Below, piece by piece: positions 3,228 through 53,141 of a stretch of DNA of 64,000 nucleotides. The translations under genes were made by a program, and so were the position numbers. The notes under the pieces are model-generated. The model ran no database searches and was not told where the DNA came from. It saw only the letters and a program-made list of their open reading frames with translations. The stretch spans positions 8,604 to 72,603 of the forward strand of contig DGFE01000100.1 in assembly GCA_002391525.1 (NCBI GenBank), written 5' to 3'. Position 1 is the first letter of the stretch, and each line of letters opens with the position of its first letter. This stretch comes from Competibacteraceae bacterium UBA3908 (lineage in GTDB: Bacteria > Pseudomonadota > Gammaproteobacteria > Competibacterales > Competibacteraceae).

Positions 3228-3388
3228 GCCTAACGGGGCGGCGGATAAGCCGCGACGGGCGGGAAAGCCGCAGGCTTTTCCGCCCGGAGTCGGCTTCATC
3301 CGCGGGTTGTGCTGCGCGGAGCACCAAGCAAACCGGCGGATGTTTATGCGCCGCCCCGTTGTCGCGGGCGCGAAGCGTCCGCGACAAC
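3228..3388. repeat. GC-rich structured palindromic element, copy A (attC-like or REP/MITE-like)
   Basis: GCCTAAC-GGGGCGGCGGATAA (3228-3247) pairs with TTATGCGCCGCCCC-GTTGTCG (3344-3364). Internal hairpins are GGGCGGGAAAGC/GCTTTTCCGCCC and CATCCGC..GCGGATG. A perfect 10-bp stem GTTGTCGCGG/CCGCGACAAC spans 3358-3388. Confidence 0.75.
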
Positions 3389-4038: not shown

Positions 4039-4171
4039 GTCCGCGACAACAGGGCGGCGGATGTTATCCACTGGTTGCTTGCTTCAGGCGAAAAAGCCTA
4101 CAGCTTTCCCGCCCGTCGCAGCTTATCCGCCGCCCTGTTATGCCACAAATTATTTACAGCATTGATGGATT
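4039..4171. repeat. GC-rich structured palindromic element, copy B (inverted relative to copy A; attC-like)
   Basis: GTCCGCGACAAC-AGGGCGGCGGAT (4039-4062) pairs with ATCCGCCGCCCT-GTTATGC (4125-4143). The reverse complement of 4092-4143 matches 3228-3285 nearly base for base. Confidence 0.75.
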
Positions 4172-13106: not shown

Positions 13107-14944
13107 GCGAGGTTCGTTATGCCGTTGGCATCGATCTGGGCACCACGCACTGCGTGATGGCGGCGGTCGATCTGGCCGCCAGCGACCAGGACCAGGTGGC
13201 CGGGGAAATCGAAGGCATTCCGCAATTGACCGCGCCCGGCGCGGTCGAGGATCGACCCATGCTGCCCTCGTTCCTGTACCTGCCGCATCCCGACGAACTG
13301 AGGCCGGACGACCGCACCCTGCCGTGGGGCGAACTGCAACCGTTCGTGGTGGGCGAGCTGGCCCGCGCCATGGGCAGCCGCACCCCGATCCGGCTGGTTT
13401 CCAGCGCCAAGAGCTGGCTGTGTCATCCCGGCGTGGACCGGCGCGCGGCCATCCTGCCGGTGGAAGCGCCGGCGGAGGTGACGCGAGTCTCGCCCCTGCA
13501 AGCCTCGATGCGTTATCTGGAACATCTGCGCGCCGCCTGGGATCACCAGCATCCCGACGCGCCGTTGGCCGAACAGGACGTGGTGCTGACGGTGCCGGCG
13601 TCCTTCGATCCCGCCGCCCGCGAATTGACCGCCGAGGCGGCGGCGGCGGTCGGCCTGGGACACCTGGTGCTGCTGGAGGAGCCGCAGGCGGCGCTGTATC
13701 ACTGGATCCTGGCGGCCCAGGGCGAGTGGCGCAAGCAGGTTCGGGTCGGCGACATCATTCTGGTGATCGACCTCGGCGGCGGCACCGCCGACTTCTCGCT
13801 GATCGCCGTGACCGAACGCGACGGTTCGCTGGAACTGGTGCGGGTGGCGGTGGGCGACCACATCCTGCTGGGCGGCGACAACATGGATCTGGCGCTGGCG
13901 CACGCGGTCCGCACCAAGCTGGCCGAACAGGGAACCCAACTCGATCCCTGGCAGTTGCAGGGGTTGACCCACGGCTGCCGCAACGCCAAGGAAATCCTGC
14001 TGAGCGATGCGGCGGTCGAGACCGTGCCGGTGGTGGTGCCAAGCCGGGGCTCCAAACTGATCGGCGGTACACTGCGGACCGAGTTGACCCGCGATGAAGT
14101 GACCCGGAATCTGGTGGAGGGGTTCTTTCCATTGGTGGAAGCTTCGGCGCGGCCCGCCAGCCGGGCGCGGGCGGCGTTGACCAAGCTGGGTCTGCCCTAC
14201 GCGCAGGACCCGGCCATGACTCGCCATCTGGCGGCGTTTCTGGCCCGCCAGGTGGGCGCGACCCGCGATCTGGCCGGGTTCGAGGACCGCTTGCCGGCGG
14301 ACGCCAGCTTCCTGCATCCGACCGCCGTGCTGTTCAACGGCGGCGTGTTCAAGGCCCGGTCGCTGTTGGCGCGGACTCTGGAAGCGCTGAACGGCTGGCT
14401 GGCCGCCGAGAACGCGCCGGCGGCACGCCTGCTCGAAGGGGCCGATCTCGATCTGGCGGTGGCGCGCGGCGCAGCCTATTACGGGTACGTGCGGCGTGGG
14501 CGGGGGGTGCGGATTCGCGGTGGCACCGCCAAGTCCTACTACGTCGGAGTGGAAAGCGCCATGCCGGCGGTGCCGGGCATGGCGCCGCCCATCGAGGCGC
14601 TGTGCATCGCCCCGTTCGGGATGGAGGAGGGCACGCAGGCCGAACTGCCGCCGCAGGAAGTCGGGCTGGTGGTCGGCGAGCCGGTGCGGTTCCGCTTCTT
14701 CGGCTCCTCGGTGCGGCGTACCGACCATGTCGGCGCGGTGCTGGAACAGTGGGAACCGGACGAGGTCGAGGAACTGGAGGAGATCGAGGCCACCCTGCCC
14801 GCCGAGGGCCGGCAGCCGGGCGAGGTGGTGCCGGTGCGCTTGCACGCGGCGGTGACCGAGGTCGGTACGCTGCGGCTGGAAGCCGTGCCGCGCACCGGTG
14901 AGGAAAGCTGGAAAGTCGAGTTCGACGTGCGCGGGGAGGGTTGA
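13103..14944 (+). CDS. Hsp70/actin-fold ATPase family protein (non-DnaK paralog 1)
   Basis: VGIDLGTTHCVMA (phosphate-1), VLTVPASFD, ILVIDLGGGTADFSL (phosphate-2) and GGDNMDLAL. Confidence 0.88.
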   Translation: MSEVRYAVGIDLGTTHCVMAAVDLAASDQDQVAGEIEGIPQLTAPGAVEDRPMLPSFLYLPHPDELRPDDRTLPWGELQPFVVGELARAMGSRTPIRLVSSAKSWLCHPGVDRRAAILPVEAPAEVTRVSPLQASMRYLEHLRAAWDHQHPDAPLAEQDVVLTVPASFDPAARELTAEAAAAVGLGHLVLLEEPQAALYHWILAAQGEWRKQVRVGDIILVIDLGGGTADFSLIAVTERDGSLELVRVAVGDHILLGGDNMDLALAHAVRTKLAEQGTQLDPWQLQGLTHGCRNAKEILLSDAAVETVPVVVPSRGSKLIGGTLRTELTRDEVTRNLVEGFFPLVEASARPASRARAALTKLGLPYAQDPAMTRHLAAFLARQVGATRDLAGFEDRLPADASFLHPTAVLFNGGVFKARSLLARTLEALNGWLAAENAPAARLLEGADLDLAVARGAAYYGYVRRGRGVRIRGGTAKSYYVGVESAMPAVPGMAPPIEALCIAPFGMEEGTQAELPPQEVGLVVGEPVRFRFFGSSVRRTDHVGAVLEQWEPDEVEELEEIEATLPAEGRQPGEVVPVRLHAAVTEVGTLRLEAVPRTGEESWKVEFDVRGEG

Positions 14945-17689
14945 ACCATCGCTCGATCCAGCACGCCCCGCTATCTGGTCGGAATCGATCTCGGCACCAC
15001 GCATACGGTCGTCGCTTACGCCGATCTCCACGCCGCCACCGACATTCGTCTGTTCTCTATCGAGCAACTGATCGCGCCCGGCGCGGTGGCGGCGCGGCCG
15101 TTGCTGCCCTCCGTGCGTTATCACCCGGCGGATGGCGAGCTGGCGGCGGCAGACGTGCGACTGCCCTGGCCCTTCGCCGATCCGGGCGGGGTCGCCGACG
15201 TCATCGTGGGGGAGCTGGCGCGGGAGCGGGGCTCGCGGACGCCGGGTCGATTGGTGGCCAGCGCCAAGAGCTGGCTGTCGCACGCCGGGGTGGATCGTAC
15301 CGCGCCGATTCTGCCCTGGGGCGCGGCGGAGGACATCGCCCGGGTCTCGCCGGTCGCCGCCAGCGCCGGCACGCTCGCCTACAGCCGCGCGGTCTGGAAT
15401 CACCGGTTTCCCCGCCAACCGCTGGAGCGGCAAGAGGTGGTGCTGACCGTGCCGGCCTCGTTCGACGAAGCGGCGCGGGCGTTGACGGTGGAAGCGGCGC
15501 GGCTGGCCGGACTGCCGCAACTGCGGTTGCTGGAGGAGCCACAGGCGGCCTGTTACGACTGGCTGCGCCGCCATCGCGGCGATGTGGTGGCGGCGCTGGG
15601 CGAGTCGCGCCTGCTGCTGGTCTGCGACGTGGGCGGCGGCACCACCGACCTGACGCTGATCCGGATCGAACCCGATGAAGCCGAACCGCGCCTGACCCGC
15701 ATCGGCGTGGGCGAGCATCTGATGCTGGGCGGCGACAACATGGATCTGACCCTGGCGCGGACCGTTGAAACCCGGTTGGGCGGCGGACGCCTGAGCGCGG
15801 GCGAGTTGTCGCAACTGTTGCAGCAGTGCCGGAACGCCAAGGAACGGCTGCTGGCGGCGGACGCGCCGGAACGGGTGTCGGTGACGGTGCTGGGCGGCGG
15901 CGCGCGGCTGATCGGCGGGGCGCGCGCGGCGGAACTGAGCCGCGACGAGGTGCGCGCGCTGCTGGTGGATGGCTTTCTGCCACGGGTCGAATCCGAAGAA
16001 CGCCCCCAGAGCCGGCGCGCGGCGGTGGTTGAATTTGGTCTGCCCTATGCCGCCGATCCGGCCATCAGCCGCCATCTGGCCGCGTTTCTGGCCCAACATG
16101 CGGAAGCCTGCCGGCGAGCGCTGGGCGAGCGGACGCCGGCAAATCGTCCGCCGATGCCGGACGCGGTGTTGCTGAACGGCGGCGTGTTCCACGGCGCGGC
16201 CCTGACCGAACGGCTGCTGGAGATTCTGAGCGACTGGCGCGGGGGGGTTCTGTTGCGGTTGGACAATCCCGAACCCGATCTGGCGGTGGCGCGTGGCGCG
16301 GTGGCCTACGGGCTGGCGCGGCGCGGTCAGGGTTTACGGATCGGCGGCGGTTCGGCGCGGGGTTATTTCCTGCTGGTGGACGGTGGACGCCAGCAAAGGC
16401 GGGGCGTCTGCCTGTTGCCGCGCGGCGCGGAGGAAGGACGGGAAATCCGGCTGGATCGGATTTTCTCGCTGCGGCTCGGTGCGCCGGTACGGTTTCATCT
16501 GCTGTCCTCGACCGGGGACGCCGTGGTTGCACCGGGTGAAGTGGTCAGCCTGGATGGAGAGGATTTCGCGCCGCTGCCACCCATCGCCACGGTGATCGAG
16601 GGCGAGACCGCCGGCGAGATTCCGGTGCAGCTGGTCACCCAGTTGACCGAGGTCGGTACGCTGGAGGTGGATTGCGTCGCGGTGGACGATCCGGCGCGAC
16701 GCTGGCGGTTGGCGTTCCAGTTGCGCGGCGGCGACGCGGCGACGCTGGCCCGCCTGCATCCGCGTTTCCCGGACGCGGCGGCGCGGCTGGAGCGGTTCTA
16801 CGGTTCCCGCGCCGAAGTGGAGTCCAGGGAAATCAAGACGTTGCGCGCCGACTTGGAGCGCTTGCTCGGCAAGCGTGAAAACTGGGAGACGCCCCTGCTG
16901 CGCGAACTGTTCGGGGTATTGTGGACGGGAGCGCGGCGGCGGCGGCGTTCGGTGGAACACGAACGGCTGTGGTTCAGTCTGGCCGGTTACTGTCTGCGAC
17001 CGGGATTCGGCTATCCGCTGGACGACTGGCGGGTCCGGCGGTTGTGGACGCTGTACGGGCAAGGCGTACAATTCAGTCAGGAGGCCCAGAACTGGGCGGA
17101 ATGGTGGACGCTGTGGCGGCGGGTGGCCGGCGGGCTGGATACGGCGGCGCAGGCGCGGTTGAGCGATGAGCTGCTGCTGGATTTGCGTCCGCCGACCGGC
17201 AAGGCGGCCAGGGATCGCCGGCCGGGCGTCGAGGACATGGCGCGGCTGGCGGCGGTGCTGGAGCGGGTACCGGCGGCGCGCAAGGTCGAACTCGGTCAGA
17301 TGTTGCTGGCGCGGCTGGCGCGCAAGGGTGAATCGCCGCACCTCTGGTGGGCGGTCGGTCGGCTGGGAACGCGGGTTCCCGCCTACGGCAGCGCGCACGA
17401 TGTGGTGCCGGCGGTGCTGGCGGCGGCCTGGCTGGAACGGGTGCTGGAACTGGACTGGAAGGCGGTGATCCCGGCGGCTTTCGCCGCGACGCTGCTGGCG
17501 CGGCTGAGCGGCGACCGGGAACGGGATTTGGACGAGGCGTTGCGGACGCGGGTGATCCAGCGGCTGCGAACGGCCAGGGCCCCGGCCTCGTGGCTGCGGA
17601 TGGTCGAGGACGTCGTGGAGTTGGACGAGGTCGACGCCGGACGGCTGTTCGGCGAGACGTTGCCGCCGGGTTTGAGACTGGTTGACTGA
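14945..17689 (+). CDS. Hsp70/actin-fold ATPase family protein (paralog 2) with about 300-aa helical C-terminal extension; start codon unresolved
   Basis: YLVGIDLGTTHTVVAYA (from 14972), VLTVPASFDEAAR, LLVCDVGGGTTDLTLI and GGDNMDLTL. The frame is continuous with paralog 1 and interrupted only by TGA 14942-14944. The first canonical start, GTG 15086, lies after the phosphate-1 motif. Confidence 0.85.
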   Translation, partial: TIARSSTPRYLVGIDLGTTHTVVAYADLHAATDIRLFSIEQLIAPGAVAARPLLPSVRYHPADGELAAADVRLPWPFADPGGVADVIVGELARERGSRTPGRLVASAKSWLSHAGVDRTAPILPWGAAEDIARVSPVAASAGTLAYSRAVWNHRFPRQPLERQEVVLTVPASFDEAARALTVEAARLAGLPQLRLLEEPQAACYDWLRRHRGDVVAALGESRLLLVCDVGGGTTDLTLIRIEPDEAEPRLTRIGVGEHLMLGGDNMDLTLARTVETRLGGGRLSAGELSQLLQQCRNAKERLLAADAPERVSVTVLGGGARLIGGARAAELSRDEVRALLVDGFLPRVESEERPQSRRAAVVEFGLPYAADPAISRHLAAFLAQHAEACRRALGERTPANRPPMPDAVLLNGGVFHGAALTERLLEILSDWRGGVLLRLDNPEPDLAVARGAVAYGLARRGQGLRIGGGSARGYFLLVDGGRQQRRGVCLLPRGAEEGREIRLDRIFSLRLGAPVRFHLLSSTGDAVVAPGEVVSLDGEDFAPLPPIATVIEGETAGEIPVQLVTQLTEVGTLEVDCVAVDDPARRWRLAFQLRGGDAATLARLHPRFPDAAARLERFYGSRAEVESREIKTLRADLERLLGKRENWETPLLRELFGVLWTGARRRRRSVEHERLWFSLAGYCLRPGFGYPLDDWRVRRLWTLYGQGVQFSQEAQNWAEWWTLWRRVAGGLDTAAQARLSDELLLDLRPPTGKAARDRRPGVEDMARLAAVLERVPAARKVELGQMLLARLARKGESPHLWWAVGRLGTRVPAYGSAHDVVPAVLAAAWLERVLELDWKAVIPAAFAATLLARLSGDRERDLDEALRTRVIQRLRTARAPASWLRMVEDVVELDEVDAGRLFGETLPPGLRLVD

Positions 17690-37447: not shown

Positions 37448-37470
37448 AGGGGCGCGCGAGCGCCCCTTGT
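37448..37470 (+). terminator. possible terminator hairpin after sucD
   Basis: AGGGGCGC-GCGA-GCGCCCCT stem-loop followed by TGTGCTATCTTC, a weak T tract. Confidence 0.35.
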
Positions 37471-37541
37471 GCTATCTTCAGGGCTCCATTCCCCTCAGCA
37501 ATCCCGCGTCCGTCGAACCGCCCGAGGAGACCGCAACGACC

Positions 37542-39176
37542 ATGGCCGCTCCCGCCACCTCCTTTCGGGTCGTCATGGCCCAACTCGATTTCCTGGTCGG
37601 CGACATCAACGGCAACGTCGGCAAAATCGCCGCCGCTGCCGCCGAGGCCCGTGACCGGTTGCGGGCCGATCTGATCGTGTTCCCCGAACTGACCATCACC
37701 GGCTATCCGCCAGAGGATTTGCTGTTGCGTCCCGGTTTCATCCGTCAGGTGAAGCCGGCGTTGCAACGGCTGTGCGGAGAAATTCAAGGCATCGCCGTCG
37801 TGATCGGTTGTCCGCTGCCGACGCCGGACGGATTGCGCAACGCCGCCGTGGTGCTGGACGACGGCGCGATGCGGGCGACGTATTACAAGCAATGGTTGCC
37901 GAATTACAGCGTGTTCGACGAGAAACGCTATTTCGTGCCGGGCGAGGATCCGGCGGTGGTGGCGGTGGCGGGGGTGCGGGTGGGCGTGACCATCTGCGAG
38001 GATGTCTGGTTGCCGGGGCCGGCCGCGCAAGCGGCCGAGGCCGGAGCACAACTGCTGATCAATCTCAACGCCTCACCCTATCACGCCGGCAAGAGCGACC
38101 AGCGGCTAAGCGTTTTGCGCGAGCGGGTGCGGGAAAGCCAGATTCCCATCGTCTACGTCAACCTGCTGGGCGGGCAGGACGAGTTGGTGTTCGATGGCGG
38201 TTCGATGGTGGTTGGCGTTGACGGTACGCTGGTTCGGCGGGCGCCGTTTTTCGCCGCCGGCCTGTATCCGGTGGATTTCCAGGTTTCCGCGGCCGGTATG
38301 ACGCCGATTCCGGGCGAGGTCGCCGAGGAACCGGGGTTGGAGGAGGGCATCTATCAAGCCCTGGTGCTGGGCGTGCGGGATTACGTCGAAAAAAATGGCT
38401 TTCCCGGCGTGGTGCTGGGTTTGTCCGGCGGCATCGATTCGGCGCTGACCCTGGCCATCGCCGTGGACGCGCTGGGACCGGAACGAGTCGAGGCGGTGCT
38501 GATGCCCTCGCGCTATACCGCCGAGATGAGCAATACCGACGCCGAGCTGGAAGCCAGGGCGCTGGGGGTCGGGTATCACATCCTGCCGATTGAGCCGGCG
38601 TTTCAAGCCTTTCTACAGGTGTTGCAACCGGTGTTCGCCGGGCTGCCGCCGGATATCGCCGAGGAGAACATTCAGGCCCGTTGCCGGGGTGTATTGTTGA
38701 TGGCGATTTCCAACAAGACCGGCAAGCTGGTGCTGACCACCGGCAACAAGAGCGAGACGGCGGTCGGTTATTCGACCCTGTACGGCGACATGGCCGGCGG
38801 CTTCGCTCCGATCAAGGATGTGCTCAAGACGATGGTTTACCGGCTGGCGGCTTATCGCAACAGCCTGTCGCCGGTGATTCCGCGACGGGTGTTCGACCGG
38901 CCGCCGTCGGCGGAACTGCGCCCGGATCAGACCGATCAGGACAGCCTGCCGCCTTACGAGCTGCTGGATGCGATCCTGCACGGTTACGTGGAGGAGGATC
39001 GCTCGGTGGAAGAGCTGATCGCGGCGGGCTTCGACCGGGCGACGGTGGAGCGGGTGGCGCGGCTGGTGATCGTCAACGAGTACAAGCGCCGGCAGGCCGC
39101 GCCGGGCGTGCGCATCACCCCACGCGCCTTTGGCCGCGACCGGCGCTATCCGATCACCTCGGGATTCCGGCGCTAG
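37542..39176 (+). CDS. nadE: glutamine-dependent NAD+ synthetase
   Basis: N-terminal CN-hydrolase domain (LIVFPELTITGYPPEDL, ICEDVW) and C-terminal synthetase domain (GLSGGIDSAL, TGNKSETAVGYSTLYGD). Confidence 0.92.
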   Translation: MAAPATSFRVVMAQLDFLVGDINGNVGKIAAAAAEARDRLRADLIVFPELTITGYPPEDLLLRPGFIRQVKPALQRLCGEIQGIAVVIGCPLPTPDGLRNAAVVLDDGAMRATYYKQWLPNYSVFDEKRYFVPGEDPAVVAVAGVRVGVTICEDVWLPGPAAQAAEAGAQLLINLNASPYHAGKSDQRLSVLRERVRESQIPIVYVNLLGGQDELVFDGGSMVVGVDGTLVRRAPFFAAGLYPVDFQVSAAGMTPIPGEVAEEPGLEEGIYQALVLGVRDYVEKNGFPGVVLGLSGGIDSALTLAIAVDALGPERVEAVLMPSRYTAEMSNTDAELEARALGVGYHILPIEPAFQAFLQVLQPVFAGLPPDIAEENIQARCRGVLLMAISNKTGKLVLTTGNKSETAVGYSTLYGDMAGGFAPIKDVLKTMVYRLAAYRNSLSPVIPRRVFDRPPSAELRPDQTDQDSLPPYELLDAILHGYVEEDRSVEELIAAGFDRATVERVARLVIVNEYKRRQAAPGVRITPRAFGRDRRYPITSGFRR

Positions 39177-39182
39177 CGGGTC
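39021..39182 (+). repeat. 162-bp direct repeat, copy 1 (authentic 3' end of nadE)
   Basis: 160/162 identical by eye to 46168-46329. The differences are G/A at 39026 vs 46173 and G/A at 39050 vs 46197. Confidence 0.92.
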
Positions 39183-39188
39183 CCGGCG

Positions 39189-40130
39189 TCACGCGGGCGG
39201 CGGTCCGAACAGAAACGCGAATACCCGTTGTCCCAGTCGCCCGCGCTTCATGCTGGCCTTGAACGAATGGCTGGCGTGTGGCAGTGCCTCAAATTCGTAG
39301 GGCGTCGTCAGCCGATTGACCGCCGCCGCCGTCCGCATCGCCTCGATCCAGCGGTAGCCGCGCTCCAGCCGGGTCAAACCCTGTTGCGCGTCAACCCTGG
39401 AGGTCTGCTTCATCTCCGGACGCCCGGGGCCGCGCCGGACATCCTGCTCGCCGACGAACGCCGCCATCGGAACCTTCAGAAACGCTTTTGGCTTGAATCG
39501 TAACGCCAGCGCCTTGGAGCGCGTTTTCAGACCGCGCGGGAAACGGGCGGCCGGGTCGGGAAAGGTATACCAGCCGGCGGCGCCAACCGCGACCCCGGCC
39601 ACCTGTTCGGGATGAGCCATCGCGTAGCGGTGAACGAACTGGCCGCCGCCCGAATAACCGAACAAGTACACCTGGCTGACATCGGCTCCGGTCAAGTCGC
39701 CCACTTCGCCGAGAATGGCTTGCAAGGCCCGATCCGGCCGTTCGCCTTTGCCGGATCGTCCCAGGCGCTGATAATCCGGGAAGCGTTCCCTGGGAAACAA
39801 GGGGGCGACCAGCACCACTCCGTATTGTTTCGCCAGCCGTTTGAAACGACGGGCGTGTTCCCCGGCGTTGCGGGAAACTCCATGTACGGTGACGAACACT
39901 CGCGCGCCGACGCCGCCCTGGGGGGGGACATAGAGAAAATACCGCTGTTCCGGATCGCCCGCCAAATGGCGCGATACGATGCCGGTTGCCGGTTGGCGGA
40001 CGATTTTGGCCGTGGGATAAACCGCCGGCGCCAGCGGGCGGGTCAGTCCGGTTTCCGGATGAAAACCGCTTGATAAACCGATGCCAGTCAACATCGTGAT
40101 CCTTGCGATACGGGTTGTCGCCTTATTCAT
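39189..40130 (-). CDS. alpha/beta-hydrolase (PHB-depolymerase/esterase-like)
   Basis: Nucleophile elbow FGYSGGGQF and an HG motif (VTVHGVSRN). The start overlaps the end of the ABC gene by 8 nt. Confidence 0.7.
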   Translation of the reverse strand: MNKATTRIARITMLTGIGLSSGFHPETGLTRPLAPAVYPTAKIVRQPATGIVSRHLAGDPEQRYFLYVPPQGGVGARVFVTVHGVSRNAGEHARRFKRLAKQYGVVLVAPLFPRERFPDYQRLGRSGKGERPDRALQAILGEVGDLTGADVSQVYLFGYSGGGQFVHRYAMAHPEQVAGVAVGAAGWYTFPDPAARFPRGLKTRSKALALRFKPKAFLKVPMAAFVGEQDVRRGPGRPEMKQTSRVDAQQGLTRLERGYRWIEAMRTAAAVNRLTTPYEFEALPHASHSFKASMKRGRLGQRVFAFLFGPPPA

Positions 40131-41835
40131 TGGCTGCCTTGCGTGGAGTCGCGCCGAACAGGCGGCTGGTCGGGCCGTCGCCGTTGAGCAGCTTCAGCGG
40201 TGGCCCGATTTCCAGCAAACGGCCATCGGCCACGTGCCAGATTTCATCGGCCTGGAACAGGCGGTCGCGGCGATGGGTGATCATCAAGACCGTGCCGCGA
40301 TAGCGCGCCACCACCTGGTCGATGACGGCGCTGGCTCGGGCGTCGAGATGGGCTTCGACCTCGTCCAGCAGGAGTAGCGCGGGATCGCCGAGCAGGGCGC
40401 GCGCCAGCGCGATCCGCTGGCGTTGGCCGGGCGAAAGGTTTTTGCCGTCTTCCAGCAGCCGGGTTTGCGCGCCTTCCGGCAGTTCCGCCAGCAATTCGTT
40501 CACGCCGCACAGGGCGCACACCCGTTCGACTTCTTCCTCCGGCGCTTCCGGCCAGCGATAACGCAGGTTTCTGGCGATGGGGCCTTTCAGCAGGGGAAGC
40601 TCGGCGCTGACCATGCCGACCGTGCGCCGCACCGAGGCGAGGCTGTACTGAGTGAGATCCTGGCCGTCGAGCCGAACCACGCCCTGGTCGGGATCGAGCA
40701 AACGGGCGGCCAGGGCCAGCAGGGTGGATTTGCCGGCGCCGTTCGGCCCCACGATGGCGATCACGCCGCCGGCGGGCGCGGTGGCGTTCAGATCCTCGAA
40801 GACCCCGGCGACGCCGACCCGCCGCAATTCCAGTTGACCGTGGGCGACCGCCAAATCCGGGGCGTTGGGACGTTCGCCGACCGGATTGGGAAGCTCCAGG
40901 AACTGCTGGATTCGCTCGGACGCCACGCGGAAGCCGTGCCAGTATTCGTGGACCCGCCCCAAATCGCGCAAGGCGGGAAGCAGCAGGCCGACGATGGTCA
41001 TGGCGCCGACGACGGTGCCAGGCGTGGTTCTGCCGTGGGCGACTTCCACCACGCCCAGCAACACGACGGCGGCGACCGCCAGCGCGCTGGTGGCTTCGGT
41101 GATCGCCCGCAACCATCCGCCAATCCGCGCCCGGGCGACCATCGCGTCGCGCAGGCGCCGGCCCTGACGGGCGACATGGCGGCGTTCCCGTTGCGCCTGA
41201 TTGCACAGTTGTATGGTCGGCATGGCCGCGATTTTCTCGTTGACGTTCGCGGCGAGCAGGGATTGGCGGCGGCGCGTTTCCCGCACCGCGGCCCGCAAGG
41301 GTCTGGCGACGGCCAGGGCGGTCGCCCCCCCGCCGACCAGGATCAGGCTGATCGCGAGCGCCAGGGTTGGATTCAGGTAACCCAGGGCCGCCAGGGCAAC
41401 GCCGGTGGTTACGCCGGCGACGCTCAGGCGAGCTAAACCCAGGCTGACCCATTGCCGCAGCGCGCTCAGGTCGCCGATGAACCGCAACATCAGGCTGCCG
41501 CGCCGCCGCCGTTGCAGCACGCGAGGCGCGAGCGCGCCGAGCCGGTCGAAGATGGCCAGCCGCACCCGGTACACATACTCCTGACCCAGCAATTCGGCGT
41601 CGATGCGCTCCCGCGCCCGCAACCAGGCGCGCAGGGCAGCCACCGTGATCAGTCCCGCCCCGATCCACGCCAGCGCCGGCAGGGCGGCGGGCTGGGACGC
41701 GCTCAGCCAGTGATCGAAGGTATGGCGGACGAGCAGGGTGGTCGCTATCGCCGCCAGGGCTTGTGCCAGGCCATTGCCGACCAGACGCGCCCACAACAGG
41801 CGGCGCCGACCGCCGAGGATGCCGGGCAGGCTCAT
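40123..41835 (-). CDS. ABC exporter, fused permease/ATPase (MsbA/MdlB type)
   Basis: Six-TM N-terminal domain, Walker A GPNGAGKST, signature LSPGQRQR and Walker B LLLDEVEAHLD. ATG 41835 overlaps the upstream stop (ATGA). Confidence 0.88.
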   Translation of the reverse strand: MSLPGILGGRRRLLWARLVGNGLAQALAAIATTLLVRHTFDHWLSASQPAALPALAWIGAGLITVAALRAWLRARERIDAELLGQEYVYRVRLAIFDRLGALAPRVLQRRRRGSLMLRFIGDLSALRQWVSLGLARLSVAGVTTGVALAALGYLNPTLALAISLILVGGGATALAVARPLRAAVRETRRRQSLLAANVNEKIAAMPTIQLCNQAQRERRHVARQGRRLRDAMVARARIGGWLRAITEATSALAVAAVVLLGVVEVAHGRTTPGTVVGAMTIVGLLLPALRDLGRVHEYWHGFRVASERIQQFLELPNPVGERPNAPDLAVAHGQLELRRVGVAGVFEDLNATAPAGGVIAIVGPNGAGKSTLLALAARLLDPDQGVVRLDGQDLTQYSLASVRRTVGMVSAELPLLKGPIARNLRYRWPEAPEEEVERVCALCGVNELLAELPEGAQTRLLEDGKNLSPGQRQRIALARALLGDPALLLLDEVEAHLDARASAVIDQVVARYRGTVLMITHRRDRLFQADEIWHVADGRLLEIGPPLKLLNGDGPTSRLFGATPRKAANE

Positions 41836-42989
41836 CAGCCGAGACCCGCCACGGCGGCGGGGATGCCCTCCCGCGGTGGTTGCCAGGTGTTCGTGACGGT
41901 CTCGCCGGCCACCCGGTCCGGTCGCCATTCGCCTTGCAGCAATTGCTGTTGCGACAATACGGGCAGACCGGTGGCGGCAGCCTCGCGGCTGGCCAGCGGA
42001 GAAGCGGTCAGCAGGCCGCTGACCGCCAGCACCGGCAGATGACGCCGGCGCAGCCACTCCACTCCGGCCAGCGCGCCCAGGGCATCGCCGGCGGCGAAGA
42101 CGATTCCGTCCACCAGCGTGGCAAAGGTCGGCGAGGCGAGCAGGCGCGCGGTTTCCTCCTGGAACAGACCGTCGGCGATTTCCAGCACGATGAATTCCGC
42201 GCCTTCCACCGCGAGGTGACCGCAAAGCTGGGTCATGACGCTCTCGACCTGCGACGAGGATACGCGATAGGTGGACGCATAACCGGCGTCGGTGAAGTCC
42301 AGCACCGAATGCGCGCCGGCGTCCACCAGCGTCCAGCGGTCACCGCCGGCCCCGGTGCCGGTCACCTTGGCCGCGCCCACCTTGATGTTCGCCTTGACCA
42401 GGCCTTTGATCAGATTGGCCGCCGTCGTGGTCTTGCCGGCGTTCATCGCGGTACCGGCCACGGCGATGGTGTAGGGGCGGCTGGGGGTCGCGGCGGGTTT
42501 GGACAGCCCCCAGTCGGCCAGATTCAGCCGATGGCCGTCGGCATCCCCCACGAAGCCGAGGGGGATGATCGTGGTGGGCCGTTTCATGCCGGCGTGGCGG
42601 GACAGCATCCGCGCCGCGATGCCGCCGCCGGCGACCAGGTGGCATTCGTCCAAGTTATCGGGCACGGTGGCTTCAAACTGATCGGGTGCGTAGCGATTGC
42701 CGTAGCAAACGATGATTTCGTCGCCTTCGTAAAGCTGGGCGCGCCGACCGTGGGGCAGTTCGATGCGCTGGTGCTGGCCCAGGCGATCCACCCGGGCGAG
42801 AACCAGATCGCCCGCGCGTGGCTTGATGGGGCCGCGCAGCAACGTGGTCATTGCCTCCCGCGCGACCCGCCGGGCGCTGTAGGCGATTCTAACGTCGGCC
42901 AGCCGGCTGGGCGTCAGGGGTTCTTTCTCGATGGGGGTCCGGTTGATCCGGTTGAGCAGGGAAATCGGTTCGGTTCTCGGCATAGACAT
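41835..42989 (-). CDS. DUF1611-family P-loop protein
   Basis: P-loop IAVAGTAMNAGKTTTAANL, followed by KVTGTGAGGD, resembles the DUF1611 (DgcN-like) family. It is the first gene of a three-gene minus-strand operon. Confidence 0.6.
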   Translation of the reverse strand: MSMPRTEPISLLNRINRTPIEKEPLTPSRLADVRIAYSARRVAREAMTTLLRGPIKPRAGDLVLARVDRLGQHQRIELPHGRRAQLYEGDEIIVCYGNRYAPDQFEATVPDNLDECHLVAGGGIAARMLSRHAGMKRPTTIIPLGFVGDADGHRLNLADWGLSKPAATPSRPYTIAVAGTAMNAGKTTTAANLIKGLVKANIKVGAAKVTGTGAGGDRWTLVDAGAHSVLDFTDAGYASTYRVSSSQVESVMTQLCGHLAVEGAEFIVLEIADGLFQEETARLLASPTFATLVDGIVFAAGDALGALAGVEWLRRRHLPVLAVSGLLTASPLASREAAATGLPVLSQQQLLQGEWRPDRVAGETVTNTWQPPREGIPAAVAGLG

Positions 42990-43049
42990 GATTTGCTTGA
43001 CTCTCGCGATAAGGTGAAATGCGCCAGAAATTACGTAGAACGTGCTGAG

Positions 43050-43064
43050 GCAAGGCCGGTGCCA
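43050..43064 (-). promoter_or_regulatory. sigma54 promoter of the DUF1611-ABC-esterase operon
   Basis: The minus strand reads TGGCACCGGCCTTGC, an exact TGGCAC-N5-TTGC. It lies about 60 nt upstream of ATG 42989. An AT-rich stretch with an ATTGATTTA x2 direct repeat lies just upstream (43074-43100). Confidence 0.85.
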
Positions 43065-43259
43065 ACTTTGAAAATTGATTTATGATATTGATTTAAAGCG
43101 TTTTTTATTTTGAACAGGGGGTTGGTCGAGAGATTGTAAAGAAGTGGGTGGGGGATTTGACCCAGTACTTGGGGTATCTGCCCCAGACGTGGGAAGAGAA
43201 AATGGGGGAAGGCTGCGCGGAATGGGCTGTAAATCCGCGGCAAGCGAGGGAGAAAGTGG

Positions 43260-44669
<1,410 letters not shown>

Positions 44670-44714
44670 GATCTTTCCAACATGCCGCGGAAAAACCGCC
44701 AGGGGCAAGACAAG

Positions 44715-46085
44715 TCAACGGGTCATCGGCAACTGCAGCAGGGCGGTGGCGCCCCGTCCTTGTTGACTGCGCAATTCCAACTGTCCACCACAACGTTGCA
44801 CGATGCGTCGCGCCAGCGCCAGGCCGACGCCCAAGCCATTGCGTTTGTCGGTGATCAACGGCTTGAACACCTCGACCAGCTTCTCCGGCGGGATGCCGAC
44901 GCCGGTGTCGCTCAATTGCAAGGCGAACAGGGCTCCCCGTCGTTCGCCGCTGATCCGCAATCGGCCACCGTTGGGCATCGCTTCCAGGGCGTTGGCGATC
45001 AGGCTGTTGAGCGCTTGCGCGAGCAGATTGGGGTCGCCGCGCACCCATGGCGACGGTTCGGGCAAGGCGACATCCACGGTCACCGCTTGACTTTGCGCGC
45101 GCCGGGCGAAACTGTCCAGGCTGTTGCGCAGCACCTCGGTGACCGGCGTCATCTGCTGAGCGTCGCCGGGTTGGTAGGAGTAGATCAACAACTCCCGCAC
45201 CCATTTTTCCAAATGATCCACCCTGGCGATGATTTCCGCCATGTATTCGCCCACCGGCGCGCGGCCTTCTTCTTGCGCCAGTTCGGCGGACGAACGAATG
45301 ACGGCGAGAGGATTGCGCAGGCTGTGCGCCACCGCCGCGGTCAGTTCACCGATCACCGCCCATTTTTCCGCTTCCACCAAAGCTTGCTGTTGGCGCTGAA
45401 TGGTCAAACTGGCGCGCCGCACGATCCAAAACAGCGCGCCGTAGAGGAACAGTCCGCCGAGCAACGCACTGAGCCAGACCAAACGGTTGCCCTTGGCGAT
45501 GGTTTGCATCAGCACGCGCGGCAGTTTGTAGATTTCCACCACGCCGACGACGGCGCCACCGCGCGGATCGCGAATCGGGATGTAATTCTCCACGAATTCA
45601 TCGACTTCCGGCGCGAATAGAATGTGTTCGGTTTTGACGGGATGTTTGACCTGACCCGTTTCCAATGCCAATTCGCCGGCCAGGGCACGATCCAGTTCCG
45701 GATTGTCGTCCGTAAAGTGCTTGCCGATCAGGTGCTCTTCGTTGGACCAGAGAATGGTTCGCTGCCGCGAATAGACGTTGGCGCGCACCACGTCCGGCAT
45801 GTGCGCGATGCGGGTGAGAAAATCGGTCAGCGGCCCCTTGCGCTTGGCGTCATCCCGCTCGGCAAAGTAAATGCCGGTGTTTTGCGCTTGGGCGATGCTC
45901 TGGACGAATTGCATCGTGACCACGGCGTCTCTTTGCAGCAGGTTCTCCCGCAGAAACCGCGCCAACAGAGTGGCGGAGATTGCGCTGATCGCCACGATGG
46001 ATAACAGGCTGAGGATGGAAAACGAGCGTAACAGGTTATAAGGCTTGAGCGTCATCGGCTCCATCATAAGATCCTCCGAATCCAC
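44715..46085 (-). CDS. sensor histidine kinase (2 TM, periplasmic/extracytoplasmic sensor)
   Basis: H-box AAVAHSLRNPLAVI and ATPase region (DTGVGIP, GLGVGLALARRIV). It lies 45 nt upstream of the regulator gene. Confidence 0.88.
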   Translation of the reverse strand: MDSEDLMMEPMTLKPYNLLRSFSILSLLSIVAISAISATLLARFLRENLLQRDAVVTMQFVQSIAQAQNTGIYFAERDDAKRKGPLTDFLTRIAHMPDVVRANVYSRQRTILWSNEEHLIGKHFTDDNPELDRALAGELALETGQVKHPVKTEHILFAPEVDEFVENYIPIRDPRGGAVVGVVEIYKLPRVLMQTIAKGNRLVWLSALLGGLFLYGALFWIVRRASLTIQRQQQALVEAEKWAVIGELTAAVAHSLRNPLAVIRSSAELAQEEGRAPVGEYMAEIIARVDHLEKWVRELLIYSYQPGDAQQMTPVTEVLRNSLDSFARRAQSQAVTVDVALPEPSPWVRGDPNLLAQALNSLIANALEAMPNGGRLRISGERRGALFALQLSDTGVGIPPEKLVEVFKPLITDKRNGLGVGLALARRIVQRCGGQLELRSQQGRGATALLQLPMTR

Positions 46086-46167
46086 TGCGCACCTGCCAAA
46101 GATTAAGAAGGTTCCAGATTAAAAACATTTCAGCGCGGAAATTATTCCGTCCGGCAGCGAATGGATA

Positions 46168-46323
46168 GCGGCAGGCTTCGACCGGGCGACGGTGGAACGG
46201 GTGGCGCGGCTGGTGATCGTCAACGAGTACAAGCGCCGGCAGGCCGCGCCGGGCGTGCGCATCACCCCACGCGCCTTTGGCCGCGACCGGCGCTATCCGA
46301 TCACCTCGGGATTCCGGCGCTAG
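46168..46323 (+). pseudogene. orphan duplicated 3' fragment of nadE (last 51 codons + stop)
   Basis: It encodes [51 protein letters not shown], with no upstream nadE body. It lies within the second copy of the 162-bp repeat (46168-46329). Confidence 0.85.
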
Positions 46324-47120
46324 CGGGTCAGTTCCGGCGTCAGGTGCGGTTGCAGCTCCTGTAGCAATGCCTTGAAGATCTTGGGATTGCCGGCGACGAT
46401 GTTGCCGGATTTCATGAAATCGTTATCGCCGCCGAAATCGCTGATCAGCCCGCCGGCTTCCTGCACCAGCAGCACGCCGCCGGCGATATCCCACGCTTTC
46501 AGACCGATCTCCCAGAAGGCATCCAATCGTCCGGACGCCACGTAAGCCAGGTCCAGCGAGGCCGCGCCGGCGCGGCGGATTTCCACGCATTTGCCGAACA
46601 GGCTGCCGAAGAAGCTGAGATAGGCCGTCTGGTGCTGGGGATGGCGGAATGGAAAGCCGGTGCCGAGCAAGGCGTTTTCCAGCGCGTTGACGCCGCTGAC
46701 CCGGATACGTCGGTCGTTCAGTTGCGCGCTCTCGCCGCGGGAGGCGGTGAACATCTCCTGCCGGATCGGATCGTAAACCAGCGCCGCTTCGAGCCGGTTT
46801 TTGTGACGGAAGGCGATGGAGATAGCGAAATGGGGGATGCCGTGCAGGAAATTGGTGGTGCCGTCCAGCGGATCGATCACCCACTGATACTCGTCCTGGC
46901 CCGGTGCTTCGCCGCTTTCCTCCGCGAGGATGCCGTGATTGGGGTACGTCTTGCGCAGGGTTTGAATGATCTCCCGCTCGGCCTGTACGTCCGCTTCGCT
47001 GACGAAATCGTTGCGCTGTTTGGCGGTGACGTTCAGCCGTTCGAGGTGATCGAAATGGCGCAACAGGATGCGGCTGGCGCCGAGGGCGGCGCGCCTGGCG
47101 ATGGTCAAGACTGGATGCAT
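46320..47120 (-). CDS. suhB: inositol monophosphatase family protein SuhB
   Basis: [19 protein letters not shown], and the AWDIAGG-type motif ([15 protein letters not shown]). Confidence 0.92.
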
Positions 47121-47212: not shown

Positions 47213-47791
47213 TCAGGCGCTTTGCAGCTCCACCTTGTCGTAAATCTCCGCCAGCGCCAGTTCACAGTCGATGGACTCCAGGCGCAGCGCGCCGTCCAGA
47301 CCGCTGCATTCGGTCAGCAACCAATGATGGTCCGTTTGCCGCCGGTAGGATTCGACATGGGGCTGGTGCTGGGCGATCAGCACGTACTCGGCCAGCGACT
47401 CCAGCTTGCGGTAATGCTCGAATTTGCGGCCCCGGTCGTAGGCTTCGGTGGAATCCGACAGCACCTCGACGATCAGGGTCGGATTCAGCAAGGTGTCGAG
47501 ATGCGCATCTTCCAACCGAGCCTTGCCGCAGACCACTACCACATCCGGGTAGGTGTACAGTCCGGTTGGATCGACCTTGACGCGCATGTCGTTGGCGTAG
47601 ACTTTACAGGGCCGCTTCTTGAGTTGTTGACGGATTTCCGAAAGGGTGTTGGCGACAATGGTATTGTGTGGTTCGCTCGCGCCGGTCATGGCGAAGATTT
47701 CGCCATCGAAATACTCGCTCTTGAAATCGGCGCTGCGTTCGAGGGCGAGATAGTCTTCGGGGGTCAGGCGGGGTTTGGGCTGCAAGGACAT
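47213..47791 (-). CDS. Uma2-family (DUF820) putative endonuclease
   Basis: TPEDYLALERSADFKSEYFDGEIFAM, PDVVVVCG, LIVEVLSDST and EYVLI. ATG 47791. Confidence 0.8.
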   Translation of the reverse strand: MSLQPKPRLTPEDYLALERSADFKSEYFDGEIFAMTGASEPHNTIVANTLSEIRQQLKKRPCKVYANDMRVKVDPTGLYTYPDVVVVCGKARLEDAHLDTLLNPTLIVEVLSDSTEAYDRGRKFEHYRKLESLAEYVLIAQHQPHVESYRRQTDHHWLLTECSGLDGALRLESIDCELALAEIYDKVELQSA

Positions 47792-47892
47792 GGCGGCACC
47801 TCGGCGGTTCGATTGATGGTGTGATTGTGCCATAAACCCGGGCTGGAGTTTCTCCGTCGCCGCCTGACTGGTGACGACGGAGAAGCGCTGTT

Positions 47893-50097
47893 TCAGTCTG
47901 AATAAAACGACCATTGTTCCGAAGCCATTCGTATCAGAATCTCCGCCGGCTGGAAACGTTCGCCCAACCGCTGGCGATACCGTTCCAGCTTCGCCACCAA
48001 TTCCGCGATTCCGAGACTGTCGGCGTAGCGGAACGGGCCGCCCAGGAACGGCGGAAAGCCGATGCCGAACACCGCGCCGATGTCGCCGTCGCGGGGGCTG
48101 CGAATCACGCCTTCGTCCCGGCAGCGCGCGGCCTCGTTGAGCATCGGCAACACGCAGCGTTCGACGATTTCCTGCGCATCCATGGCCTTGTCGCCCGTCA
48201 CGCCCAGCACCGGATAGACGCTCTTGTCCACCGGCTTTTCGCCCTTTTTGACGCCCTCGTAGCGATAGAAGCCCTTCTTGCTCTTGCGGCCGTAGCGGCC
48301 ATCGGCCAGCAGCTTGTCGGCGACGCCCACCGGTTGCATCCGTTCGCCGAACGCCGCGTACAGGATCGGCCCGACCTTGGACCCCACGTCGATGCCGACC
48401 TCATCCAGCAGAGTGAATGGCCCGACCGGGAAGCCGAATCGCACCAGCGCCTGGTCGATGGCGTCAATCGCCACGCCTTCGCCGAGCAGATAGCCGGCCT
48501 CGTTGATATAGGGCGCCAGGATGCGGTTGACGTAGAAGCCGGCGCCGTCTTGGACCACGATCACGGTCTTGCCCTGTTGACGACCGAATTCGACCGCCGT
48601 GGCGATGACCTCCGGCGCGGTCCGCGGGGTGGCGATGATTTCCAGCAACGGCATTTTCTCGACCGGCGAGAAGTAATGCATCCCGACCACGTTTTCGGGT
48701 CGTCGAGCGGCTTCGGCGATGGTGGCGACGGGAATCGAGGAGGTGTTGGTGGCGAAAATCGTCGCGGGCGGACAGTGCGCTTCCACATCCGCAACCATTT
48801 GCCGTTTCAGCGCCCGATCCTCGAAGACCGCCTCGATCACCAGAGCCACGTTCTGGAAGCCGGAGAAATCCAGGGTCGGCGTGACCCGGCGCCGCTCCTG
48901 ACCGGCCTCGAACGCGCTGATGGAACGCCGTTGCAGGCGCTTGTGGATTAGCCGGTCGATGCAGGCCAGGCCGCGGTTGAGACCGGCGGGGTCCTTGTCC
49001 TTGAGCCGGACCGGGATTCGCGCCTTGCTGGTGGTGATATAGCTGATGCCGGCGCCCATCAATCCTGCGCCGAGCACCCCGATCTTGCGGATCGGGCGGG
49101 GTCGCACGCCTGGATCGGCAACGCCGGTGTCTTTCTTCAGCGCCGTGGTGGCGAAATACAGGTTCATCAATTGCCGCGCCTGCGGGGTCATCGCCAGTTC
49201 GCCGAACGCGACCGCTTCCGCCTCCAACCCTTTCTGGAAGCCGTGGCTGGCGCCGGTTTCCACGCAGTCGATGATGCGCAACGGCGCGGGGTAATGGCCC
49301 CTGGTCTTGTTCAGCACTTGCTCGCGGGCTTTTTGAAACAGTACCCGTCGGCCCAGCGGGTTGTCTTCCAGCACCAGCCTGGTCAGGCCCTTGATCGAGA
49401 ACAGGCTGCCCGAACGCGGGGTGACGGCGCGGTGGTGCTGAAGTTTCTTCGCCAGGGCGACGGCGGTTGGCAGCAGGATGGTAGCCGGCGCCACGTCGTC
49501 CACCAGCCCCAGCCGGCGAGCCTTTTGCGCGTTCAGATGCTTGCCGGTCAGCATCAAATCCAAGGCGGCGGGAATGCCGATCAGCCGCGGCAGGCGTTGG
49601 GTGCCGCCGCTGCCGGGCAGTACGCCCAGCATCACCTCCGGCAAGCCGAGCGTGGTCCTGGAATTGTCGGTGCAGACCCGCCCGTGGCAGGCCAGCGCCA
49701 GTTCCAGCCCGCCGCCCAGACAGGCGCCGTCAATCGCCGCGACCACCGGGATCCTGAAATTCTCCAGCCGGTCGAAGAAACGCTGGCCGGCCTTGGAGAG
49801 TTCCGTCGCCTCGGCGGCGGTGCGGCAGGCTTTCAGCATATTGATGTCCGCGCCGGCGATGAACGAGCCGGGCTTGCCGCTGATGAACACCACGCCTTGA
49901 ACAGTCGCGTCCTGCTCCAGCCGGTCCAGCAAGGTATTCGCTTCGCCGACGAATTCGGCCTTGAAGATATTCTGGCTCTCGCCGGGCAGGTCGATGGTGA
50001 CCACGGCGACGCCGTCCTCGCGCAACGCCAGTTGGAAGACGGTCGGATTCGGTTCGGTCGTCATGGGAGGGGTTCCTCCGGCTGTTTGCGTCGCCAT
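47893..50097 (-). CDS. fadJ: fatty-acid oxidation complex alpha subunit (enoyl-CoA hydratase/3-hydroxyacyl-CoA dehydrogenase), FadJ-like
   Basis: Crotonase N-terminal domain (FISGKPGSFIAGADI), NAD-binding GVLGAGLMGAGI and a 3HCDH C-terminal domain. The ATG overlaps the fadI stop. Confidence 0.92.
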   Translation of the reverse strand: MATQTAGGTPPMTTEPNPTVFQLALREDGVAVVTIDLPGESQNIFKAEFVGEANTLLDRLEQDATVQGVVFISGKPGSFIAGADINMLKACRTAAEATELSKAGQRFFDRLENFRIPVVAAIDGACLGGGLELALACHGRVCTDNSRTTLGLPEVMLGVLPGSGGTQRLPRLIGIPAALDLMLTGKHLNAQKARRLGLVDDVAPATILLPTAVALAKKLQHHRAVTPRSGSLFSIKGLTRLVLEDNPLGRRVLFQKAREQVLNKTRGHYPAPLRIIDCVETGASHGFQKGLEAEAVAFGELAMTPQARQLMNLYFATTALKKDTGVADPGVRPRPIRKIGVLGAGLMGAGISYITTSKARIPVRLKDKDPAGLNRGLACIDRLIHKRLQRRSISAFEAGQERRRVTPTLDFSGFQNVALVIEAVFEDRALKRQMVADVEAHCPPATIFATNTSSIPVATIAEAARRPENVVGMHYFSPVEKMPLLEIIATPRTAPEVIATAVEFGRQQGKTVIVVQDGAGFYVNRILAPYINEAGYLLGEGVAIDAIDQALVRFGFPVGPFTLLDEVGIDVGSKVGPILYAAFGERMQPVGVADKLLADGRYGRKSKKGFYRYEGVKKGEKPVDKSVYPVLGVTGDKAMDAQEIVERCVLPMLNEAARCRDEGVIRSPRDGDIGAVFGIGFPPFLGGPFRYADSLGIAELVAKLERYRQRLGERFQPAEILIRMASEQWSFYSD

Positions 50098-52505: not shown

Positions 52506-53141
52506 ATGTTTTTTGAATGGATCAAACCAATGAGACTAAAAAGCATGGTGGTTGCGGTTCTATGGATTTCTACGCCGGCAGTCCTGCACGCTGGACAGAA
52601 CGATGCGGCGGCCATGGATGCCGTGATGGGGGTTATGCGGATGATGCAGCAGTCCGGGGGAGGCGGTCCGGGAGACGATGAGGTGATGGATGTCTTCGAT
52701 AGAGCAGTACAGGGTTCCCGCGACCGTGATCGCGACCGGTCGGGGCGGAGTGGCAACCGGCGCGGCGAGCAGCGGCGTGGTGCGAATTTCGACGATGACG
52801 ACGGTGGTGGCCAGCGGCGCCGCACGGGGTTTGACGACGACGGCGGTGGTCGGCGGCGGGGATCGGGCTTCGATGACGACGGTGGTGGTCGGCGGCGCGG
52901 ATCGGGCTTCGACGACAACGGTGGTAGCCGGCGCCGCACCGGGTTCGATGACGACGGCGCGGGTCGGCGGCGCGGATCGGGCTTCGACGACGACGGTGGT
53001 GGTCGGCGGCGCGGATCGGGCTTCGACGACGACGGTGGTAGCCGGCGCCGCGGATCGGGTTTCGATGGCGACGGTGGTCGGCGGCGGGGATCGGCATCCG
53101 ACGATGATGGTGGTCGACGCCGCCGCCAGAATCAGGATTAG
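52506..53141 (+). CDS. secreted low-complexity protein with about 9 tandem G-F-D-D-D-G-G-G-R-R-R-G-S repeats
   Basis: Signal-peptide-like N-terminus (MRLKSMVVAVLWISTPAVLHAG). The repeat units are in-frame. The gene is followed by a strong intrinsic terminator. The start is ATG 52506 or 52530. Confidence 0.6.
   Translation: MFFEWIKPMRLKSMVVAVLWISTPAVLHAGQNDAAAMDAVMGVMRMMQQSGGGGPGDDEVMDVFDRAVQGSRDRDRDRSGRSGNRRGEQRRGANFDDDDGGGQRRRTGFDDDGGGRRRGSGFDDDGGGRRRGSGFDDNGGSRRRTGFDDDGAGRRRGSGFDDDGGGRRRGSGFDDDGGSRRRGSGFDGDGGRRRGSASDDDGGRRRRQNQD
52785..53138 (+). repeat. tandem 39-bp (36-42 bp) repeats, about 9 units
   Basis: The unit is GGCTTCGA(T/C)GACGACGGTGGTGGTCGGCGGCGCGGATCG. Unit boundaries fall at 52827, 52866, 52905, 52941, 52980, 53019, 53058 and 53094. 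Confidence 0.9.

Follow-up and report, generated by a model that had tools for sequence, protein, structure and literature searches.

A stretch of 64,000 nucleotides from Competibacteraceae bacterium UBA3908 (assembly GCA_002391525.1, contig DGFE01000100.1, positions 8,604 to 72,603; hereafter the window) carries a 7-kb block of five genes between the convergent housekeeping genes nadE and suhB, flanked by direct repeats of the nadE 3′ end. We think it probable, though far from certain, that this block is an old islet without an integrase, whose target duplication has been kept alike by gene conversion and which has been replaced, transferred and probably deleted by recombination of the RecA type. 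We would class it as a genomic islet sitting at a recombination hotspot, whose flanking target duplication shows unusually clear concerted evolution; it represents no new kind of element. With empty, repeat-flanked and repeat-less forms all represented among its relatives, designated here by L numbers, the locus offers a well-sampled natural case of an integrase-free islet apparently exchanged between genera via conserved flanking genes.

The repeat spans the ends of both nadE and suhB

A preliminary description of the window had reported a 162-bp direct repeat of the nadE 3′ end on either side of the block. Direct comparison of 39021-39182 with 46168-46329 gave the same identity (160/162), with the two mismatches (39026/46173 and 39050/46197) at third codon positions of nadE. 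A repeat search of the window extended the match slightly to the left (39017-39182 vs. 46164-46329; 166 nt, 98%) and found no other long dispersed repeat in the 64 kb, one tandem array aside. The full unit is longer still and runs into the end of suhB. In a BLAST alignment of 179 columns, and in our further alignments, copy 1 (175 nt) lacks four nucleotides, AGTT, that are present in copy 2 (46330-46333), and past this indel the homology reaches 39191 and 46342. The unit thus comprises the terminal 157 coding nucleotides of nadE, the nadE stop codon and the terminal 19 nt of suhB:

39017..39191, + strand, repeat copy 1 (175 nt), of which 39017-39176 forms the functional 3′ end of nadE, stop codon included
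39177-39191, relic of the suhB 3′ end (H′) in copy 1, with a 4-nt deletion; it provides the hydrolase stop codon
46164..46342, + strand, repeat copy 2 (179 nt)
46164-46323, nadE part of copy 2, a non-functional duplicate of the 52 terminal nadE codons and the stop
46320-46342, suhB part of copy 2, the true suhB 3′ end
37467..39176, + strand, nadE, glutamine-dependent NAD+ synthetase (Pfam CN_hydrolase and NAD_synthase); intact, with its last 160 nt in copy 1
46320..47120, - strand, suhB, inositol monophosphatase family (Pfam Inositol_P); intact, its stop codon overlapping the nadE-derived TAG

As had been noted before, copy 2 has no nadE body upstream and overlaps the suhB stop: the CTAG at 46320-46323 is the overlap of the nadE-derived TAG with the CTA stop of suhB. 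At the other end, the stop codon of the first block gene, a hydrolase (TCA, 39189-39191), falls in the suhB-derived tail of copy 1. The full 19-nt suhB relic, without the deletion, is kept at the nadE-side junction in L091 and L115. Both nadE and suhB are intact despite the insert between them, and the nadE orthologues of relatives are 78-98% identical to that of the window.

Three states of the nadE/suhB locus

Related loci were drawn from a genome scan, a metagenome pattern scan and genomic-context look-ups; the source organisms are uncultured. The loci fall into three states:

Empty site: L002-L006, L102, L104, L107, L109, L110, L112, L116-L123 and L105-type relatives (examples)
Repeat-flanked, block with both copies: the window's species, L092, L091, and L105 with L115
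Repeat-less, with the block at that site but lacking both copy 2 and the suhB relic: L001, L093, L094-96 and L103

L105 and L115 were counted as one lineage, being from the same sample with matching alleles; L103 covers the nadE-side junction only, where it matches L093. In the empty state, represented by more than 20 Competibacteraceae loci, the two genes adjoin and their stop codons overlap, which bears out the earlier supposition that nadE ancestrally converged directly on suhB.

All four repeat-flanked lineages have identical junctions (GCGAATG joined to GAT(A/C)GCGGC, and GTCA joined to CGCGGGCGG), and the block ends of the repeat-less loci agree with these to within a few nucleotides. 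Because the junctions coincide across lineages, we infer a single insertion event: the module would have entered once, in a Competibacteraceae ancestor, where the stop codons of convergent nadE and suhB overlap. The nature of this event can be read from L091, whose occupied site is what results when the block is added to the empty site of L005 and L005:11533-11711 is duplicated; the two flank alignments overlap by 179 nt. Relative to empty sites, therefore, the block reads as an insertion with a clean 179-bp target duplication. Such a duplication would have left both housekeeping genes intact.

The proteins of the block differ by up to about 40% between lineages. For the ABC (ATP-binding cassette) exporter, identity is 76% between the window and L092 and 55-59% between repeat-flanked and repeat-less alleles. 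This deep allelic divergence across the family, together with the native composition described below, marks the block as an old, family-wide resident of the nadE/suhB site and not a fresh island.

The block has a native composition and no mobility genes

No integrase or transposase was found among the block open reading frames (ORFs), all of which were compared with Pfam, nor does any further ORF there have a mobility domain; the 64-kb window contains no tRNA. The absence of all three had been remarked on from the outset, as had the native GC content of the block, which is 0.640 against 0.649 +/- 0.025 for other segments of the window. In tetranucleotide usage, 77% of the other 7-kb segments lie farther from the rest of the window than the block does. 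A foreign composition of the block was ruled out on these grounds, its GC content and tetranucleotide usage being indistinguishable from those of the window. We found no terminal inverted repeats at the block ends (the best score, 7, was equalled by 762 of 1000 shuffles). The locus does not resemble a composite transposon or insertion sequence either: there is no transposase, there are no inverted repeats, and the duplication is 179 bp where 2-14 bp would be expected.

Comparison with islands inserted at gene 3′ ends by tyrosine recombinases, including integrative and conjugative elements (ICEs) as well as integrative and mobilizable ones (IMEs), gives a more mixed picture. The islet resembles them in its insertion at a gene 3′ end, in repeats that contain the gene end, in the intact target, in its presence or absence among relatives and in a cargo unrelated to the target. 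It differs in having no integrase, excisionase, transfer genes or tRNA, in its native composition and in being old and family-wide; furthermore its repeat is 179 bp of host DNA covering two gene ends and not an att core. The preliminary description had proposed an insertion that regenerated the nadE 3′ end in the manner of site-specific islands. The insertion and the intact genes stand, and direct repeats do flank the block at a regenerated 3′ end, but the idea of a recent site-specific island finds no support, with no recombinase, no foreign composition and a block that is old in the family.

The main rival explanation is that the block is what is left of an integrative element directed at the 3′ end of nadE and carrying a surrogate copy of it, its repeats being attL and attR and its integrase lost or acting in trans. 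Elements of this kind, without integration and transfer genes but retaining attL and attR, are known as cis-mobilizable elements (CIMEs; PMC5704250). The block shares with them the lack of integration and transfer genes and the retained flanking direct repeats, which lie at the 3′ end of a regenerated gene. Its distribution among relatives is patchy, and its boundaries agree exactly across four lineages and on two genomic backgrounds; it is this constancy of the boundaries in different backgrounds that makes the CIME-like remnant the main rival. We nevertheless hold it to be unlikely. The block has no integrase, and no integrase-bearing or tandem element, nor any cognate ICE or IME, was found at the nadE/suhB site in about 45 related Competibacteraceae loci; L111, where different genes lie downstream of nadE, has no integrase beside nadE either. 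Among the plasmids of PLSDB none carries the block, the only matches being generic similarity to sigma-54 regulators (these searches speak for sampled data only). No part of the block resembles a degraded mobility module: its composition is native, and all of its genes belong to one functional module, which in one of two cases elsewhere occurs without adjoining mobility genes. Finally, a repeat that holds 19 nt of suhB looks like duplicated host DNA and not like an att core.

A second alternative gives the repeats themselves the active role. Here the repeat-block-repeat unit would be a true mobile cassette without a recombinase of its own, with the 179-bp host-derived repeat as a portable address. 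A RecA-dependent loop-out would yield a circle of the block and one repeat, which, once transferred, could enter the highly conserved nadE/suhB junction of any Competibacteraceae genome by a single crossover; re-integration would recreate the boundaries, and gene conversion would match the address to the new host. We judge this decidedly unlikely.

The copies of the repeat evolve in concert

If the repeats are as old as the insertion, their near-identity needs an explanation. We compared the copies within and between lineages over a 117-nt core. Copy 1 and copy 2 differ at no position in the window, at 2 in L092 and at 3 in L105/L115, versus 3-19 nt between lineages, and in these three lineages the copies group by genome (bootstrap 99, 90 and 77%). 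Four substitutions are common to both L092 copies relative to both window copies. The window and L092 also have in common the 4-nt deletion in the suhB relic, and the duplication is therefore older than their split. In the species of the window, copy 2 is fixed for the A of 39050, at which copy 1 is polymorphic, and position 46173 of copy 2 varies among strains. The exception to clustering by genome is L091, with 13 differences between its copies.

The homogenised core measures about 125-160 nt, and the outer, unconstrained edges of the repeat are eroding. Copy 2 has decayed over its left ~55 nt in L091 and L105, its right ~125 nt being intact, and in the window and L092 the suhB relic beside copy 1 is degraded by its 4-nt deletion. 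These patterns point to gene conversion, and not to recent insertion, as the source of the near-identity of the copies. Conversion would be templated mostly by the selected nadE copy and would keep the copies alike while their outer edges erode. Near-identity cannot be read as recency in any case, because repeat-less relatives and deep divergence of the block exist. The preliminary description had held that relatives with the block but no repeat would speak against its account. Such relatives are L001, L093, L094-96 and L103; what they bring down is the equation of identity with recency, while the insertion itself stands. Flanking repeats can thus be near-identical without a recent insertion: here a 179-bp duplication stayed 98-100% alike while the genes that it encloses diverged by 10-40% between lineages.

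Concerted evolution by gene conversion is familiar from duplicated tuf genes and rRNA operons. As in those systems, the copies of one genome resemble each other more than they do their orthologous counterparts in other genomes, and alleles are shared at strain level; the islet differs in that one partner is a non-functional 160-nt gene fragment lying 7 kb away.

It could also be that copy 2 is itself under selection, either as the native 3′ untranslated region or terminator of suhB (antisense to nadE) or as the source of a short peptide with the same sequence as the NadE C-terminus. This is compatible with our favoured explanation, although we give it only a small chance. The intact right ~125 nt beside a decaying left ~55 nt in L091 and L105 would fit such a role, as would the fact that all differences between the copies are synonymous in the nadE frame (3 in the window and 11 in the L091 core); moreover, the suhB transcript must ancestrally have terminated within nadE. 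However, lineage-specific synonymous alleles common to both copies are a signature of conversion and not of independent constraint, and copy 2 does carry non-synonymous variants (Q in place of R in L085, M in place of I in L105). The antisense RNA is no more structured than shuffled controls (z = +1.0), copy 2 contains no terminator-like site, and several lineages do without copy 2 altogether.

Order of the three states

The suhB relic and copy 2 occur together: both are present in all four repeat-flanked lineages and both absent from all four repeat-less ones. The repeat-flanked form can be derived from the empty site in one step, whereas passing from the repeat-less to the repeat-flanked form would need two independent non-homologous joins that mimic a target duplication. 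On this basis we infer the order empty, repeat-flanked, repeat-less, with copy 2 decaying last. Where copy 2 has fully decayed, the block would no longer be deletable by recombination between the copies.

The reverse possibility is that the repeat is secondary, the block having first inserted without a long duplication and the nadE fragment having been added later, for instance by recombination with DNA of an empty-site strain. Several lineages do carry the block without a detectable copy 2, and the junctions of L093 share only a 9-nt repeat (CGCTAGCGG). We regard this as very unlikely, since two separate illegitimate joins (a suhB relic placed by nadE and a nadE fragment placed by suhB) would have to mimic a clean duplication exactly; the perfect correlation of relic and copy 2 (4/4 and 4/4) and the single step from empty to repeat-flanked argue in the same direction.

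In the repeat-less loci, the spacers keep 7-10 nt of the nadE end beside suhB. The spacer between the kinase upstream region and suhB is GC-rich in L001 (14735-14839) and in L094 (4802-4915). That of L001 contains a GTCCGCG...CGCGGAC hairpin whose fold is not significant (z = -1.1), and a 10-mer, CCCGGTGCGG, that is present twice.

The block appears to have been exchanged between genera

The nadE tree divides the family into two clades. L091 belongs to the Contendobacter-like clade, where it is sister to L005 (bootstrap 91) and stands among empty-site genomes; its outer flanks are syntenic with those of L004-L006 at about 86% identity. Compared with the window, L091 is 88-94% identical in the block, 79% in nadE and 82% in suhB. 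The discordance runs the other way for L092, which is 98% identical to the window in nadE and 82-93% in the block, and the lineage closest to the window changes along the block. These relationships make it appear that the block has been exchanged between genera.

The two copies in L091 are informative about how this may have happened. Their cores differ at 11 sites, all of them synonymous, an outcome with a chance of about 1e-6 under neutral decay; copy 2 must therefore come from a different functional nadE allele. A distinct allele is what would be expected if one of the copies arrived with foreign DNA, and the data fit replacement or insertion of the block by homologous recombination via the repeats and the conserved genes on either side. 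The 179-bp repeats and the nadE and suhB flanks would serve as homology arms with no dedicated recombinase involved, allowing replacement of one allele by another, entry into the empty sites of other genera and, probably, deletion.

Comparable processes have been described as Campbell-type insertion-duplication and as homology-facilitated (illegitimate) recombination when DNA is taken up (PMC3240628), and as the deletion of insertions through flanking homology (PMC4795794). The likeness lies in heterologous DNA flanked by a duplicated homologous segment, in gain, loss and replacement via flanking homology, and in the two L091 copies being different functional alleles. The islet differs in that its first insertion still needs two non-homologous joins, and in being a natural, long-lived arrangement and not a laboratory product.

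A number of observations sit less easily with an old islet that is moved by homologous recombination. Copy 1 of L091 is of the resident type throughout the suhB relic, so that a simple crossover model needs a later conversion, and L091 is a metagenome contig of 2.8x coverage. In the pair L001 and L094, identity is 84% for nadE but 90-95% for the block and suhB, implying that nadE has been exchanged in at least one lineage and that the nadE tree is imperfect as a species tree. We did not find an empty site in the window's species: of five contigs with identical NadE, three enter the hydrolase gene and two stop at the repeat. Nor was a circular junction (kinase upstream region-repeat-hydrolase end) present among 22 metagenome loci matching the repeat core. 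With regard to the loss of copy 2, nhmmer found no nadE relic in the spacers of L001, L094 and L093 using a profile of 35 distinct nadE 3′ ends, and Smith-Waterman scores of spacers against nadE were marginal (p ~0.01-0.14 vs. shuffles). The step from repeat-flanked to repeat-less is thus tentatively suggested by parsimony and by the 7-10 nt of retained nadE end.

It should be noted that the left junction of L091 was considered as a possible chimera, a Contendobacter-type suhB relic being fused there to the hydrolase end. This was rejected: the junction shares no more than 4 nt with any of the parental sequences, which would not suffice for a k-mer join.

Both junctions are found in independent assemblies

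The preliminary description had raised mis-assembly as a concern. Both unique junctions recur across four or more independent assemblies from the window's species, as well as in three other lineages with their own variants. L081, an independent contig of 82.9 kb that is 99.8% identical to the window over 13.7 kb, contains both copies; copy 2 is joined to the kinase gene in L084, L085 and L086, and copy 1 to the hydrolase gene in L097, L099 and L106. Many independent contigs encode SuhB and NadE proteins identical to those of the window.

The repeat does disturb assembly. Eight contigs of the window's species end in or at the nadE 3′ repeat (L082, L083, L087-L090, L100 and L101), four Logan contigs (k=31) break off exactly 30 nt inside it, as expected where a de Bruijn graph branches, and L084 has a run of Ns inside copy 2 (6647-6655 region). 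That the second copy is itself an artefact, from a mis-join or a collapsed repeat, is almost certainly wrong all the same: the many broken short-read contigs and the N-run are outweighed by junctions reproduced in at least four assemblies, by an 82.9-kb contig spanning both copies and by the same junctions in three other lineages with lineage-specific sequence variants. The practical consequence is that the repeat systematically fragments short-read Competibacter assemblies at this point, and metagenome-assembled genomes may falsely seem to lack the module or to carry it unlinked.

Genes and signals of the block

The five genes of the block are all on the minus strand:

39189..40130, - strand, alpha/beta hydrolase of the PHB (polyhydroxybutyrate)-depolymerase/esterase family; weak Pfam match to Abhydrolase_1
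40123..41835, - strand, fused permease/ATPase ABC exporter, 570 aa (ABC_membrane and ABC_tran; gene calls in L081)
41835..42989, - strand, DUF1611 P-loop protein, 384 aa; homologues named 'DUF1611 domain-containing protein', weak Pfam match to MobB
43050..43064, - strand, predicted sigma-54 promoter, TGGCAC-N5-TTGC, a perfect match read from the sequence
43260..44708, - strand, sigma-54-dependent response regulator of the NtrC/AtoC family (Response_reg, Sigma54_activat and HTH_8)
44715..46085, - strand, sensor histidine kinase, AtoS/ZraS-like (HisKA and HATPase_c; NCBIfam)
46086..46163, - strand, AT-rich region upstream of the kinase gene at the right block end

For the hydrolase, gene callers give a product of 301 aa with a start near 40094; its matches to the NCBIfam models esterase_phb and dPHAscl are below cut-off, and its orthologues are annotated with Pfam Esterase_PHB. 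The ABC exporter is MsbA/CydDC/HlyB-like, yet falls under every NCBIfam equivalog cut-off, and its start overlaps the stop of the DUF1611 gene. For the DUF1611 protein the search gave 4375 homologues, and the literature searched contains two incidental mentions only of this domain. The top NCBIfam match of the response regulator is AtoC, again below cut-off.

The predicted sigma-54 promoter lies 60 nt upstream of the DUF1611 gene, within the gap 42990-43259, where GC content drops to 0.52-0.55; this is the AT-rich internal region (about 43000-43250) that had been singled out earlier as a promoter region. The second AT-rich region, 46086-46163, is conserved to about 46156 in all block-bearing relatives, as an alignment of eight loci shows, and has no match to a sigma-70 consensus. 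Given the kinase, the sigma-54 regulator and the perfect sigma-54 promoter upstream of DUF1611, the block reads as a self-contained five-gene module for regulation and export, in which a two-component system would govern a sigma-54-driven operon of DUF1611 protein, ABC exporter and esterase. The same five genes also occur together at unrelated loci in other bacteria (L124 and L125). The cargo is a variable trait among the glycogen-accumulating organisms of wastewater plants, and may merit functional study.

Three details of related loci can be added. In L125 (12403-12763), the module has another gene order and lies about 1 kb from an rve/DDE transposase gene, at an unrelated locus. In L091 (8673-11354; 2.8x-coverage contig), the ABC exporter and hydrolase are called as one product of 893 aa, which is either a genuine fusion or due to a frameshift error. 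There is variation on the suhB side of the locus too: a gene of the Uma2 family (PF05685) adjoins suhB in the window's species (47213-47914) and in L094-96 (L094:3330-4004), and is absent at that position in L093 and L091.

Other repeats in the window

The tandem array mentioned above occupies 52754-53137, with units of about 39 nt and at least 7 overlapping 153-nt copies that are 65-84% identical; it lies probably inside an ORF of about 1889 aa next to a PspA gene. An inverted repeat of 62 nt (3228-3289 and 4082-4143) is 87% complementary, with its arms 792 nt apart. Adjacent paralogous gene segments about 1.85 kb apart, at 13850-14523 and 15707-16350, match over 52 nt at 87% and over 82 nt at 73%.

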